Sequence record: OP292222.1
Source of the DNA: Escherichia phage Esco_phi_B-01
DNA: 64,000 nucleotides
Reading direction: 5' to 3' (one strand)
Shown here: in pieces, positions 782 to 47,929 of the stretch
Numbering within the stretch: position 1 is the first letter of the stretch
Layout: each line of letters begins with the position of its first letter
Made by a program: the position numbers and the translations under genes
The notes under the pieces: generated by a model
What the model was told of the DNA's origin: nothing
The model's input: only the letters and a program-made list of their open reading frames with translations
Databases searched by the model: none

Positions 782-1120
782 ACCCTTTAAACGGCTTCTT
801 ATTGGAGCCGCCTTCAGACTTCGCTCATACGGTAATATTTGTATTAAGCAGACTGAAACCGAATATAAAATGGTTGGGCAGTATTCCGATGAAATTTTTC
901 GGATTGAGCCTGTAGCCAAGGTTTGGGTGGATTCACATCAACTTAAGAAGTGGTGGCAACGATGATAACATGGACTGCCGGTTAATGAATGACGAATACG
1001 AAAAAGTTTAAGAGGTGTATTATGACTATTGATGATGTAGATATTCTTACTTCCGACGAATTAAAACGATTGGGTAATATATTTCAAGACGAACATCCTG
1101 ATTTTTAAGAGGTCATATGA

Positions 1121-17582: not shown

Positions 17583-17904
17583 TTTATCTGATTTAGATAA
17601 TTTTGTTAAAGATACTGAAGAGGGTCCTAGTGACCCTCGTTATTATGAGAAATCGTTAGATATAATCCGTAAGTCAATGGGTTCTGTTAAGCAGGAAATT
17701 ATGCTTACATTACCTGATGGCACTGCTCACATCGTTTATGTGATGAATATTGTTATTGAGAAAGATGGAAAAGTGTCGGTTGATTTCGGAACGCCTTCCG
17801 AAGACCGAAAAGAAGAGCTAGCGCTTCATGTAGAAAAATGTGTTACAATGCAAATACAAGAAGAACTGGATAAAATTAAATCTAAGAGGTGGTGGAAGTG
17901 GTAG
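17575..17904 (+). CDS. 40: gp40-like protein (name by position between uvsX and 41)
   Basis: 109 aa ORF overlapping both neighbours; positional assignment only. Confidence 0.5.
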   Translation: MTDLSDLDNFVKDTEEGPSDPRYYEKSLDIIRKSMGSVKQEIMLTLPDGTAHIVYVMNIVIEKDGKVSVDFGTPSEDRKEELALHVEKCVTMQIQEELDKIKSKRWWKW

Positions 17905-19328
17905 AAACTATTTTGGCTCAACTGCTAGGCAATAGTGATTATTTCACTAAGGTCTGGCCTTATATGAATGATTCTTATTTTGACCAGGGTCCGGCAAAGA
18001 CCCTTTTCAAAGAAATCAAAAAACATGTCAATGAATATAATGCGGTGCCTTCTAAAAATGCTTTGAGTATTGCATTAGATAACAGCACCCTTTCAGAAGT
18101 TGAACATCAAGGAGCTAAAGAGCTTTTAAATTCTCTGAATGCAGGCCCTGAAGACCAAGAATGGTTGGTTAAAGAGACAGAGAAATATGTTCAGAAGGCA
18201 GCGATGTATAATGCCACTTCAAAAATTATTGAAATTCAAACTAATGCCGACCTTCCGGTTGAGCAACAAAATAGAAAACTCCCAGGTATTGGTGCTATTC
18301 CAGATATCATGCGTGATGCATTATCGATTTGTTTCGATTCTGAATTAGGCCATGACTGGATGGATGACTATGAAGAACGTTTTAAAAGTTATTCTGATAA
18401 AGCACGTAAGGTTCCATTCCGTCTTAATATTCTGAATAAGATTACTAAGGGTGGCGCTGAGTTTGGTACTGAAAACGTATTGTTAGCAGGAACAAACGTA
18501 GGTAAGTCTCTGGGTCTGTGTTCATTGGCTGCTGATTACCTTCAATCCGGTTACGATGTTCTTTATATCTCCATGGAGATGGCAGAGGAAGTATGTGCTA
18601 AGCGTATCGATGCTAACCTTCTAGATGTATCACTGGATGATATTGATGATGGTCACGTCTCATGGCCTGAATATAAAGCCAAGATGGATAAGTGGCGTTC
18701 AACTGCTACTTTAGGTCGTTTAAAGATTAAACAGTATCCTACTGGTGGTGCTAATGCCGATACATTCCGTGCATTATTAAACGAATACAAGCTCAAACAA
18801 AACTTTGTCCCACAGGTCGTTATCGTCGACTACTTGGCCATCTGTGCTTCATCCCGTACGAAAGTTTTCTCTGAAAACAGTTATGGATTGATTAAGATGG
18901 TTGCCGAAGAACTACGTGGACTTGCAGTAGAGAAGAAATTATTGTTGTGGACTGCAGCCCAGACTACTCGTGGCGCGAACGTTGCAGCCGAAATCGATAT
19001 GGCTGATATCGCTGAATCCTTTGGTATTGCACATACTGCAGACTTCATGTTAGGTGTGGTCGAGACAGAAGAGTTTGCTCAGATGGGTATGCAGATGGTT
19101 AAGCAGCTTAAATCCCGTTATGGTGATAAGAGCTACTACAACAAATTTAAGATTGGTGTTAAGAAAGGAAACCAGCGTTGGTATGAAGTTGAAGACGATT
19201 CTAACCCAGGCCCAGTGAACACCGTTCGTGAGGCTACAGGTGAAATGAATCGCCAAGCAGAGGTCAATCGTCAGTCGCGTGTTAATAGAAGCGATTTAGA
19301 CGATTTAGCAGCATCTATCAAATTTTAA
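17889..19328 (+). CDS. 41: gp41 replicative DNA helicase (DnaB-like)
   Basis: GTG start aligning MVEVV.. to T4 MVEII..; Walker A GTNVGKS; C-terminus like T4 gp41. Confidence 0.93.
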   Translation: MVEVVETILAQLLGNSDYFTKVWPYMNDSYFDQGPAKTLFKEIKKHVNEYNAVPSKNALSIALDNSTLSEVEHQGAKELLNSLNAGPEDQEWLVKETEKYVQKAAMYNATSKIIEIQTNADLPVEQQNRKLPGIGAIPDIMRDALSICFDSELGHDWMDDYEERFKSYSDKARKVPFRLNILNKITKGGAEFGTENVLLAGTNVGKSLGLCSLAADYLQSGYDVLYISMEMAEEVCAKRIDANLLDVSLDDIDDGHVSWPEYKAKMDKWRSTATLGRLKIKQYPTGGANADTFRALLNEYKLKQNFVPQVVIVDYLAICASSRTKVFSENSYGLIKMVAEELRGLAVEKKLLLWTAAQTTRGANVAAEIDMADIAESFGIAHTADFMLGVVETEEFAQMGMQMVKQLKSRYGDKSYYNKFKIGVKKGNQRWYEVEDDSNPGPVNTVREATGEMNRQAEVNRQSRVNRSDLDDLAASIKF

Positions 19329-20374: not shown

Positions 20375-20668
20375 ATGAAAAAGTTATTAATCGCAGCAAT
20401 CCTTACAGTAGCATCATGTGGTACAGCTCCAGTTACGGCTGGATTGGATAAAGACCTTTGTGAATGGTCTATGACCGCAGACCAAGAATCAGTTGAACAT
20501 CAGATTTACGCTGATATCATGAATATCACTAAACGTGACCGTCCTGATATGGTTAAAGAAGTATCTGACCAATTGGCTTCTAGCGGTGTTATGCAGTATA
20601 ACTATGTTCTGTACTGTGATGCTAATTTCGATAACAAAAATATTGTTAAAGAGGTGATAGGTGAATAA
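20375..20668 (+). CDS. sp: Spackle-like periplasmic protein (Sp)
   Basis: 97 aa with signal peptide; DKDLCEWSMTADQ...VMQYNYVLYCD resembles remembered T4 Sp. Confidence 0.5.
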   Translation: MKKLLIAAILTVASCGTAPVTAGLDKDLCEWSMTADQESVEHQIYADIMNITKRDRPDMVKEVSDQLASSGVMQYNYVLYCDANFDNKNIVKEVIGE

Positions 20669-21310: not shown

Positions 21311-21472
21311 ATGAAATCTTTTAAAGAAGTTATGAACGAAGATATGGTCGCAGGCGATGCTGGTGGAAATCCATCTAATATTGCCTCCGGAACTACCTCA
21401 GGCGCAGTCGTCAACAAAGGGCCTGAACAAATCCCATCTAAAAAGCGTAAAGAAAAATCCGAAAACGAATGA
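21311..21472 (+). CDS. small Gly/Ser-rich protein (53 aa) with basic tail
   Basis: RBS aggag; preceded by a late-promoter box. Confidence 0.4.
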   Translation: MKSFKEVMNEDMVAGDAGGNPSNIASGTTSGAVVNKGPEQIPSKKRKEKSENE

Positions 21473-21510
21473 TATAATGGCTCTATTAATTTAGAGCCCA
21501 AGGAAAAATA

Positions 21511-22539
21511 ATGTCATATGTCGATAGAGAATTTGCTGTACGTGCCTTGAATTACCAACCTAAATTCAGACAAGTAACTGGTAGTGATTTTAAATTAAAC
21601 TGTCGTTGTCGTGTATGCGGCGACTCCCAAAAGGATGAGAACAAAGCTCGATTCTGGGCCTATCCAGCCAATGACGGCTCTGTAATGCTACACTGTTTTA
21701 ACTGTGATTATTCGGCAGGAATTAAGAAGTACCTATACGAATATGAGCCTGATTTATATCGCGAATATATTCTTGAGAAACATAAAGAGCAATCGTTCGG
21801 GAGACAAGCTGCGCCTAAGGTGGAGATATCTGAAAAAATTAAAGCTAAGATGCCTGTCATTGAAAAGCTTAATTTCTGTGAACGATTAGATAGAATGCCG
21901 AAAGACCATCCTATTATTAAGTATGTAACTCTGCGGTGCATTCCTGAAAATAAATGGAATCGGTTATGGTTTACTAAAGAATGGCCTGCATTGGTGAATT
22001 CTGTTAATCCAGGGACATATTCCAAAGAAATGCCTGAACCACGTTTGGTTATTCCAATTTTCAATAAGAATAAACAAATTGAAAGTTTTCAGGGCCGAGC
22101 CTTACGTAAAGATGCTCCACAAAAATATATTACAATAAAAGCTCATGACCAAGCTACAAAAATATATGGAATGGATACAGTTGACGAACGTCAATTGGTG
22201 TGGGTAATGGAAGGTCCTATTGATTCATTATTCGTACCTAATGCAATAGCAATTACTGGTGGGTCGTTGGACTTGGCTATGGTTCCATGTAAAGAAACTC
22301 GTGCCTGGGTAATGGACAATGAACCCCGTCATCCTGACACAATTAAGCGTATGCAACGATTAGTTGATGCCGGCGAAAGGGTCCTATTCTGGGACAAGGC
22401 CCCATGGCCTTCTAAAGATATAAATGATATGGTTATGAAAGATAAAGCTGATATAAATGATGTATTGGCATATATGAAAGCTAATATAGCCCAAGGGTTA
22501 ATGGCAAAAATGAGGCTTTCAAAATATTCTAAAATTTAG
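21511..22539 (+). CDS. 61: gp61 DNA primase
   Basis: 342 aa; zinc-ribbon CRCRVCGD...CFNC; C-terminus NIAQGLMAKMRLSKYSKI matches T4 gp61. Confidence 0.92.
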   Translation: MSYVDREFAVRALNYQPKFRQVTGSDFKLNCRCRVCGDSQKDENKARFWAYPANDGSVMLHCFNCDYSAGIKKYLYEYEPDLYREYILEKHKEQSFGRQAAPKVEISEKIKAKMPVIEKLNFCERLDRMPKDHPIIKYVTLRCIPENKWNRLWFTKEWPALVNSVNPGTYSKEMPEPRLVIPIFNKNKQIESFQGRALRKDAPQKYITIKAHDQATKIYGMDTVDERQLVWVMEGPIDSLFVPNAIAITGGSLDLAMVPCKETRAWVMDNEPRHPDTIKRMQRLVDAGERVLFWDKAPWPSKDINDMVMKDKADINDVLAYMKANIAQGLMAKMRLSKYSKI

Positions 22540-22736
22540 ACAGGAACTCCGCTAAAGAATCCAATTATGCTTAATACGTGTTCCATTGTAACCGCTGGTA
22601 AAATTACCCCTTGGCTAGCGGCTACAGGAACTACTAAAAGATTCCAAAGGAATACGTCTAGCGCAAGAAAACCTAACATCATTTTCTTGTCTTTCTTTTC
22701 AGCCAATTTCCAGATTTGGTAAAAAATACTACCCAT
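22536..22736 (-). CDS. small membrane protein (66 aa) on the opposite strand
   Basis: strong minus-strand RBS AGGAGGA 5 nt before ATG; amphipathic N-terminus then TM segment. Confidence 0.5.
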   Translation of the reverse strand: MGSIFYQIWKLAEKKDKKMMLGFLALDVFLWNLLVVPVAASQGVILPAVTMEHVLSIIGFFSGVPV

Positions 22737-22765
22737 GTTATCCTCCTGTTAAATTAATATTTATT

Positions 22766-22789
22766 CGCTTTAATCTAGCAGTTTATAAT
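22766..22789 (+). promoter_or_regulatory. MotA-type middle promoter for gene 56 (cGCTTTA - 11 - TATAAT)
   Basis: MotA-box-like element with one mismatch, -10 TATAAT. Confidence 0.4.
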
Positions 22790-22830
22790 TATCTAACTTA
22801 CTAACAAATGAATTGATAAGGAAAAATATA

Positions 22831-23352
22831 ATGGCTCATTTTAATGAATGTTCTCAACTGATTGCCGGTGCCGATAAAGCTGAAGAAGCTTATTTTAATG
22901 CTCTGATTCACGAAGATAAAGACCCTCTGCAGGTTATGCTTGATATGCAGAAATCTTTGCAGGTTCGTTTAGCTAAAGATAAGCCTGAATATAATCGTCA
23001 TCCTGATGATTTGGCCACTGCGGGTGAAGTTGTCGATTGGCTTCGCAACCAGAAAGATTATATTGATGACGAATTCCGTGAACTTCTGACTTCTCTTGGT
23101 GGTATGAGCAATGGTGAAAAAGATGCATCTGCAGTATGGAAGCCTTGGAAAGCTCAACATGCTGAACGTCGTGAAACCCTGATTAACGATTTGTCTCCTG
23201 AAGACCAGCTCGAAATTAAATTCGAAATGATTGATATTCTGCACTTTGTTCTGAATATGTTCCAGGGTCTTGGACTGACTGCTGAAGAAATCTTTAAACT
23301 GTATTATCTTAAAAATGCCGAGAACTTTGCTCGTCAAGACCGAGGTTATTAA
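22831..23352 (+). CDS. 56: gp56 dCTPase/dUTPase (MazG-like)
   Basis: MAHFNEC...DPLQVMLDMQ...IDDEFRELLTSLG...EIFKLYYLKNAENFARQDRGY closely matches T4 gp56. Confidence 0.85.
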   Translation: MAHFNECSQLIAGADKAEEAYFNALIHEDKDPLQVMLDMQKSLQVRLAKDKPEYNRHPDDLATAGEVVDWLRNQKDYIDDEFRELLTSLGGMSNGEKDASAVWKPWKAQHAERRETLINDLSPEDQLEIKFEMIDILHFVLNMFQGLGLTAEEIFKLYYLKNAENFARQDRGY

Positions 23353-23354
23353 GT

Positions 23355-23362
23355 TATAAATA
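23355..23362 (+). promoter_or_regulatory. T4 late promoter box TATAAATA upstream of soc
   Basis: exact TATAAATA about 30 nt before the soc ATG. Confidence 0.6.
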
Positions 23363-23393
23363 CACCTGTAATTAAACAACAAAGGAGTTAATT

Positions 23394-23627
23394 ATGGGTG
23401 GTTTCGTTAATATCAAAACCTTTACGCATCCAGCTGGTGAAGGTAAAGAAGTTAAAGGTACTGAGGTTTCAGTTCCGTTTGAAATCTATTCAAATGAGCA
23501 TCGTATTGCCAATGCTCATTATCAGACTTTCCCTTCGGCCGTTGCAGCCTATACTACTGTAGTGACTGATGCAGCCGATTGGCGAACTAAGAACGCGGCG
23601 ATGTTTACGCCTACCGATATTGTTTAA
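23394..23627 (+). CDS. soc: Soc small outer capsid protein
   Basis: GFVNIKTF...AHYQTFPS matches T4 Soc; late promoter upstream; RBS aaaggag. Confidence 0.8.
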   Translation: MGGFVNIKTFTHPAGEGKEVKGTEVSVPFEIYSNEHRIANAHYQTFPSAVAAYTTVVTDAADWRTKNAAMFTPTDIV

Positions 23628-47921: not shown

Positions 47922-47929
47922 TATTTATA
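47922..47929 (-). promoter_or_regulatory. T4 late promoter TATAAATA (minus strand) for t
   Basis: plus-strand tatttata; RBS AAGGAG between box and ATG. Confidence 0.55.

Follow-up and report, generated by a model that had tools for sequence, protein, structure and literature searches.

Dam.1 of T4-like phages: a conserved small membrane protein gene with a late-type promoter box and a putative relationship to holins

Phage T4 serves as the reference for lysis timing and lysis inhibition; yet gene dam.1, present in more than 800 sequenced relatives, is without a published function. The holin of T4, protein T, has been established experimentally, and the exclusion proteins of this phage are known to be made early. 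Class II holins or pinholins, e.g., S68 of phage 21, are proteins of about 65–75 aa, similar in size to Dam.1, that form a hairpin of two membrane helices; unlike Dam.1, they have charged C-terminal tails and are located in lysis cassettes. For the gene transfer agent of Rhodobacter capsulatus, whose holin gave the Pfam family PF11351 its name, the endolysin-holin locus rcc00555-rcc00556 was found to be required for lysis and release (PMC5026251); one paper remarked that a demonstration of direct lytic activity was then still lacking (PMC3423380). Here, the dam.1 locus was analysed in a 64,000-nt stretch of DNA of Escherichia phage Esco_phi_B-01 (record OP292222.1; hereafter the window, whose positions are used as coordinates), where a 66-aa open reading frame (ORF) lies on the minus strand between gene 61 and gene 56, both on the plus strand, as had been described in a first-pass annotation of the window. 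Judged by its sequence, this ORF is the Dhakavirus orthologue of T4 dam.1. The gene was already known from databases as that of a hypothetical protein (T4T dam.1, RB69 ORF029w); what is added here is codon-level proof of coding, a conserved late-promoter box, the unannotated presence of the gene in the T4 reference record and a remote homology, backed by controls, to a holin-family core. The complete statement, that Dam.1 may be a late, holin-derived accessory inner-membrane protein that affects permeabilisation or lysis timing, is one we regard as evenly balanced.

The window ORF encodes the protein MGSIFYQIWKLAEKKDKKMMLGFLALDVFLWNLLVVPVAASQGVILPAVTMEHVLSIIGFFSGVPV, which matched PHROG 2024, a family annotated as of unknown function (E=6.5e-28; residues 1–64 against profile positions 1–64 of 65). 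Homologues were found by tblastn with the window protein in 139 phage records from several genera, and those of the T4 form in 698 phage records. Against each of the orthologues from three other genera (Bp7, Marfa and VR26) the ORF DNA aligned without gaps, and the differences at codon positions 1, 2 and 3 numbered 8, 4 and 35 for Bp7, 10, 5 and 39 for Marfa, and 17, 11 and 40 for VR26. In the Dam.1 frame, the proportion of nonsynonymous differences (pN) was 0.09–0.20 and that of synonymous differences (pS) 0.79–0.86, which gives pN/pS of 0.12–0.24, while the remaining five frames held 2–11 stop-containing codons, with pN/pS near or above 1 except in the antisense frame that has the wobble position in common. 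Since the third-position bias and the low pN/pS are confined to the Dam.1 frame, the ORF is, with very high confidence, a genuine translated gene under purifying selection. The minus-strand stretch 5′ of its ATG reads GCGAATAAATATTAATTTAACAGGAGGATAACATG and contains the Shine-Dalgarno sequence AGGAGGA that had been pointed out beforehand; the 5-nt spacer given with it holds if counted from AGGAGG, the distance from AGGAGGA being 4 nt. GGAGG is kept 5′ of the ATG in most dam.1 orthologues inspected. A plus-strand ORF of 51 aa (22567..22722) was rejected, because the equivalent frames hold stops in other genera and are without a coding pattern. Pfam returned no meaningful match for the window protein or for any of 36 family members. 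Two names carried by homologues, "DNA packaging ATPase" (Klebsiella phages MY02 and SAKp28) and "dCTP pyrophosphatase" (the SEA1/CGG4-1 form), were rejected as annotation spill-over, and the single UniProt entry named "Holin" (the OE5505 homologue) was taken as a lead only.

The history of annotation of this gene is uneven. In the T4 RefSeq record (NC_000866), the 309-bp unannotated gap between dam and gene 61 holds a 66-aa ORF (17738..17938, on the strand opposite to gene 61) that has the 4-nt stop overlap with gene 61 and the upstream sequence ATAAATATTAATTTAAAGGAGGA, both as in the window; the T4T record HM137666 annotates it as dam.1, hypothetical protein (locus T4Tp032). The JS98 orthologue (NC_010105, 15340..15540) is likewise unannotated, while that of IME281 is annotated as hypothetical in RefSeq (KNT84_gp251), the Mosigvirus orthologue carries the label "similar to RB69ORF029w" and the Gaprivervirus one "similar to VR7 gp033". 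Most newer T4-like genomes annotate dam.1, in contrast to the T4 and JS98 reference records. In all eight genera that were checked (Tequatro-, Mosig-, Dhaka-, Gapriver-, Moon-, Kanagawa-, Gelderland- and Marfavirus) dam.1 is convergent with gene 61, Bp7 being an exception to direct adjacency, with a homing endonuclease between the two genes. The family comprises two subfamilies, type A (the T4/RB69 form) and type B (the JS98/Marfa form, which includes the window protein), and both occur in tandem in the Gaprivervirus VR26 (L008 595..792 and 801..1001). Of these tandem paralogues only the first is preceded by a late box, so that they are probably co-transcribed. Alignment of 13 diverse members revealed six invariant residues, W31, N32, P37, G43, P47 and G63, all of which the window protein has. 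A search of a literature library found nothing on dam.1 or RB69ORF029w, including work on T4 small proteins and ribosome profiling, and no expression, proteomic or mutant data.

On the same strand as the ORF and 5′ of its Shine-Dalgarno sequence lies a T4-type late-promoter box, AATAAATA, which is the A(-13) variant of TATAAATA. With the box taken as positions -13 to -6, transcription is predicted to start near 22752 and to leave a 16-nt leader. In a compilation of T4 late promoters 32 of 50 were perfect and A(-13) was the commonest variant (9 of the 50 sites; PMC2988020); other T4-like phages often have A or T at -13 (PMC1524935). The 100 nt upstream of the dam.1 ATG were compared across 12 independent lineages, ten of which have the core ATAAATA 15–22 nt 5′ of the ATG, with flanks that have largely diverged. 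The perfect box TATAAATA precedes dam.1 in Bp7, Marfa, Q7622 and Kosakonia 305, the form AATAAATA is found in the window and PhAPEC2, CATAAATA in three lineages, GATAAATA in T4, and TATTAAATA in the other two of the twelve. Across the window WATAAATA is depleted about two-fold (8 sites against 16.4 expected), and six of the eight sites lie 13–36 nt 5′ of an ATG, most of them with a recognisable ribosome-binding site; these include the sites of soc, of the gene 34 homologue and of t. We infer strongly, and hold it to be highly probable, that dam.1 is transcribed late from a gp55-type promoter, the timing in vivo being a prediction. Of the roles suggested in the first-pass annotation, that of a late-expressed accessory gene is well supported, by the late box across genera and by the orientation of dam.1, which it shares with the late genes t and 34 of the window.

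The amphipathic N-terminus followed by a transmembrane (TM) segment, which had also been proposed at first reading, was confirmed. With a Kyte-Doolittle hydrophobic moment of 1.83, residues 2–14 are amphipathic; residues 14–18 are basic, and the most hydrophobic stretch of 19–23 residues is formed by residues 19–41, with a mean of 1.9–2.05. AlphaFold2, run with the 36-sequence alignment, predicted helices at residues 3–11, 14–41 and 51–62 and a loop at 42–50, with a mean predicted local distance difference test (pLDDT) score of 72 that rises to 80–85 over the long helix. According to these models Dam.1 is a helical membrane protein, and the basic cluster ahead of the long helix would, by the positive-inside rule, place its N-terminus in the cytoplasm. 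The C-terminal helix (hydropathy 1.7) is moderately hydrophobic in types A and B and less so in the Merlin and Kosakonia forms; it may span the membrane or sit at its periplasmic face.

What other proteins resemble Dam.1? A search with the hidden Markov model (HMM) of the family against 1.84 billion representative proteins returned only 22 clusters, so the family is narrow. Its most distant members (59–99 aa) retain the pattern W/Y-N..xP...G..LP..P(D/E), and three of them matched PF11351 ("Holin of 3TMs, for gene-transfer release", GTA_holin_3TM; gathering score 24.8 bits), at E of 0.03–0.07 and 14–15 bits, and three matched PHROG 3427 "holin", at E of 5e-4 to 2e-3, in the same register and always in the C-terminal half of the model. 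As these matches fall below threshold, the link was tested directly by profile-profile comparison. Rhodobacter phage RC1 and Roseobacter phage CRP-125 were retrieved by tblastn with two of the distant members as queries. The CRP-125 protein, gp44, is a clear member of PF11351 (E=1.9e-15) and of PHROG 3427 (E=3.7e-28), encoded between the tail-fibre genes and maturase A, while RHWG_00029 of RC1 (PF11351, 24.2 bits) comes directly after an endolysin gene. The T7 holin gene 17.5 also occupies the position between the tail-fibre and maturase A genes.

A reference holin alignment was built from gp44 and eleven further relatives from viral contigs. When it was compared by hhalign with a Dam.1 profile made of T4-like members only, the match had a probability of 91.6% (P=8e-7, score 39.4) and placed Dam.1 residues 21–64 on holin positions 69–119; the whole-family profile gave 96% (P=4e-9, score 50.4), and a repeat of the Dam.1-holin comparison gave 91% (P=1.1e-6, score 38). 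Reversed profiles scored 9.6 and 7.7, and 150 column shuffles 10 +/- 2, with maxima of 17.9 and 24.5; as these controls are low, it is the order of the residues that the match relies on. Conserved holin positions are aligned with W31, P37, G43, L46-P47, the acidic residue 52 and G63, N32 being the exception among the invariant residues, and the RC1 holin has a W-N pair like that of Dam.1. Dam.1 covers only holin positions from about 64 to 126 of 133, and its end coincides with the conserved GL(G/S)G. Taken together, these sequence comparisons make it probable that Dam.1 descends from the holin family by way of its TM2-loop-TM3 core. Because the N-terminal part, the WRP motif and the basic tail are missing and the Pfam threshold is not reached, Dam.1 was not filed as a member of PF11351; it is better described as a putative truncated remote relative.

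Longer relatives of Dam.1 occur in prophages and siphophage-like elements. A 96-aa family that matches PHROG 2024 (E=4e-11) is found widely among enterobacterial prophages; one of its sequences was present on 884 contigs, and the 96-aa prophage relative had no tblastn match in the phage collection. In E. coli the 96-aa relative lies about 1.4 kb from a gene of the T4-lysozyme type, where the tail module ends. A run of four genes that closes with a lysozyme gene starts with an 82-aa relative, and for an 80-aa relative the distance from a lysozyme gene is 0.5 kb. In this way, three of the five contexts of the 70–96-aa relatives have a Phage_lysozyme gene within 0.5–1.4 kb, once in the same operon, and the other two have none within 3 kb. 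This arrangement is suggestive of lysis modules, not conclusive, because homing endonucleases and genes without an assigned function are present there as well. A recurring module was observed in which a Dam.1-like protein of 70–96 aa is accompanied by a basic protein of about 180 aa, proteins of about 105 aa and about 90 aa (the latter with a coiled coil and a TM segment at its N-terminus), a lysozyme of the T4 type and a homing endonuclease that has inserted; it may be an undescribed lysis cassette.

How could Dam.1 act? We propose that dam.1 would be transcribed against the surrounding early-gene flow from its gp55-type late promoter and translated from the strong ribosome-binding site. The 66-aa product would insert in the inner membrane with a basic, amphipathic N-terminus in the cytoplasm, the TM helix 19–41, a 9-residue periplasmic loop and the helix 51–66. 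This helix-loop-helix would be derived from the TM2-loop-TM3 core of holins with the loss of the N-terminal ~60 residues and of the basic C-terminal tail, and Dam.1 would probably self-associate via the conserved hairpin and modulate inner-membrane permeabilisation or lysis timing. Since T-even phages rely on the unrelated holin T, Dam.1 would most likely be an accessory late membrane protein and not the main holin. A lysis-related function as such is put forward tentatively. The antiholin-like role named in the first-pass annotation receives indirect support in its link to lysis, from the order-specific remote homology to the holin core. More doubtful is the bolder suggestion that Dam.1 is an overlooked lysis component of T-even phages, which would accumulate together with T and tune permeabilisation, either by triggering T as a depolariser of the pinholin type or by acting as an antiholin-like brake in lysis inhibition. 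Several results weigh against the proposal that Dam.1 is a late, holin-derived lysis accessory. Lysis fails in t mutants, so Dam.1 cannot suffice as a holin; t lies about 24.5 kb from dam.1, and no lysis gene adjoins dam.1. The T4 box, GATAAATA, is a rarer deviation. No T4-like member (neither the window protein nor any of the 36) matches PF11351, and the distant members stay below its gathering score. A Foldseek search against viral models gave convincing matches to family members only, "3TM holin" entries at E of about 6 adding nothing. Finally, the shuffle controls argue against a spurious profile similarity of short hydrophobic proteins and do not prove common descent.

The main competing explanation is that Dam.1 is a late inner-membrane protein with a job unrelated to lysis, e.g., in assembly, in transport or ion leak, or in phage defence or exclusion, its likeness to holins reflecting shared ancestry or a convergent hairpin. 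We consider this explanation unlikely, though it deserves serious attention. It would account for a dam.1 without a lysis neighbour in T4-like genomes, for the missing N- and C-terminal parts of the holin and for a T-even lysis gene set that is already complete, t included, and it agrees with the lack of lysis annotation on the ~180-aa and ~105-aa companion genes of the distant relatives; however, the residues conserved in Dam.1 are those conserved in the holin core, the distant relatives tend to sit near endolysin genes, and the promoter and ribosome-binding-site layout is common to dam.1 and t. A role in superinfection exclusion, which had been offered in the first-pass annotation, was not borne out; here Dam.1 would be a membrane protein of the Imm/Sp kind, for exclusion or immunity, with the DNA or lysozyme of incoming phages as its target. 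Dam.1 is indeed a small membrane protein encoded in the same genome region as sp, but PHROG 2024 was the sole match in the PHROG search, with no Imm or Sp family among the results, Sp is encoded separately, the promoter is of the late and not of the early type, and sigma-70-like promoter matches in the region are at chance level (9 found against 7.1 expected). This makes such a role improbable. The suggestion of a toxin-like peptide fared no better, as a single one of the 36 members matched Ldr_toxin, at the noise level of E=0.1, and no Rfam family was assigned.

It may also be asked whether the key product is the RNA and not the peptide. Early messages could be lowered by a late RNA that lies antisense to both the 61-56 read-through mRNA and the gene 61 3′ end, the peptide being secondary. 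The ORF overlaps the gene 61 stop, as noted at first reading, and T4, Merlin, Marfa, PhAPEC2 and Kosakonia 305 have the identical 4-nt stop overlap. Moreover, a terminator scan found none between gene 61 and the Dam.1 ORF, so that late dam.1 RNA must run antisense into gene 61, and early gene 61 read-through must run antisense across the Dam.1 ORF. Late transcripts of T4 can be of either polarity, and transcription covers both strands, at different times, at several T4 sites (PMC2988020). Yet purifying selection on the amino acids is strong, the synonymous sites are saturated (pS 0.79–0.93) and the ribosome-binding site is conserved; an Rfam scan of 22300..23000 gave a match at noise level only, with no RNA family assigned. 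An antisense effect could exist in addition but cannot explain the conservation, and we consider RNA as the key product very improbable. That the ORF arose by chance in AT-rich intergenic DNA might be argued from its shortness and from its absence from the JS98 and T4 RefSeq annotations; it is refuted by the conserved family, the codon-position bias and a frame that is open in every genus examined, and we give it practically no credence.

The coordinates of the features are collected in Table 1. Escherichia phage JS98 and close relatives (Dhakavirus, Tevenvirinae) share 99% identity with the window over 21500..23400, and the plus-strand gene series is as in JS98, namely 41, dmd, 61.4, sp, 61.1, 61, 56, soc and mrh. 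The window T is only 80% identical to JS98 T, which, against the 99% of the 61-56 region, suggests mosaicism at the tail-fibre/lysis end. Upstream of gene 56, on the plus strand, GCTTTA (22767..22772) stands 11 bp before TATAAT (22784..22789). This pair (22767..22789) resembles a MotA-dependent middle promoter for gene 56, by consensus match only. The candidate would be arranged back-to-back with the minus-strand late box, and the 94-bp spacer would thus carry two divergent promoters of different temporal classes. Two further WATAAATA sites precede gene 61.1 (21311..21472, the site being on the plus strand) and a 53-aa ORF at about 35181, and these "early-region" genes may therefore be read late too.

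Table 1. Coordinates of the dam.1 locus, of the predicted parts of Dam.1 and of compared features (window positions unless a contig is named)
Feature	Position	Strand	Basis or remark
Dam.1-family coding sequence, 66 aa, type B subfamily	22536..22736	-	ORF list, PHROG 2024, codon tests, T4 orthologue
Predicted amphipathic N-terminal helix, residues 3-11, then basic cluster K14-K18	22704..22730	-	AlphaFold2, hydrophobic moment
Predicted TM helix, residues 19-41, with invariant W31-N32 and P37	22614..22682	-	Hydropathy, AlphaFold2; aligns to TM2 of PF11351 holins
Short loop, residues 42-50, invariant G43 and P47, predicted periplasmic	22587..22613	-	AlphaFold2 coil; aligns to holin G...LP..P(D/E) loop
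Predicted C-terminal helix, residues 51-66, conserved acidic residue 52, near-invariant G63	22539..22586	-	Aligns to holin TM3, without basic tail
Shine-Dalgarno sequence AGGAGGA	22741..22747	-	Then TAAC (4 nt), then ATG
T4-type late-promoter box	22758..22765	-	21 nt before Dam.1 ATG
Convergent stop/stop overlap TTAG (Dam.1 TAA / gene 61 TAG)	22536..22539		4 bases in common
Gene 61 (primase)	21511..22539	+	
Gene 56 (dCTPase)	22831..23352	+	
sp (spackle)	20375..20668	+	About 2 kb upstream, same region
Holin gene t, 217 aa	47250..47903	-	Perfect TATAAATA at 47922..47929 (-), 18 nt before ATG
WATAAATA sites	21290, 22758, 23355, 35137, 47922, 52223, 57940, 60031		
Recurring module loci (siphophage-like elements, E. 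coli prophages)	L016 1887..4291, L032 3001..4918, L034 2279..4089, L036 1712..3243		

The link to holins gives a simple, testable hypothesis in a fully tractable system. If Dam.1 does turn out to be a component of lysis, the classic T4 lysis paradigm (T, RI, RIII, E and the spanins) would be incomplete; if the link to lysis fails, an ordinary conserved late membrane protein remains. The modest outcome would be to add dam.1 to the reference annotations and to label PHROG 2024 as "holin-related small membrane protein".

Among the described systems, the nearest to the window gene are T4 Dam.1, RB69 ORF029w and VR7 gp033, whose genes share with it the convergence with gene 61, the stop/stop overlap, the ATAAATA box and GGAGG, and whose family shares with the window protein the length (62–74 aa) and the pattern W-N...P...G...P...G. 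They differ in that the type B protein of the window (MGSIFYQIWKL..KKDKK) is only about 22% identical to the type A protein of T4, and in that T4 has dam between dam.1 and gene 56, whereas dam is absent from the window. Holins of PF11351 and PHROG 3427 resemble Dam.1 in the pattern (F/L)W(N/A)..xP...G..LP..P(D/E)......G over TM2-loop-TM3 and are likewise small phage inner-membrane proteins for the end of the cycle. Dam.1 is, however, half their size and has a loop shorter by 7 residues; the N-terminal ~60 residues (a hydrophobic segment and an amphipathic stretch), the basic RTFEKMKG tail and the WRP motif are missing from it, and it has no endolysin neighbour, being flanked by primase and dCTPase. 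Library searches with Dam.1 gave no sequence similarity to small two-helix holins or pinholins. T4 Imm and Sp are, like Dam.1, small envelope proteins of T-even phages, but they are encoded by early genes on the other strand and belong to families unrelated to Dam.1. T, whose 217 aa include a large periplasmic domain, showed no detectable sequence relationship with Dam.1; yet in both proteins a cytoplasmic N-terminus is predicted to precede a single, strongly hydrophobic helix, and the two genes are nearly identical in layout, each being on the minus strand, with a strong ribosome-binding site and, 18–21 nt before the ATG, a (T/A)ATAAATA box.

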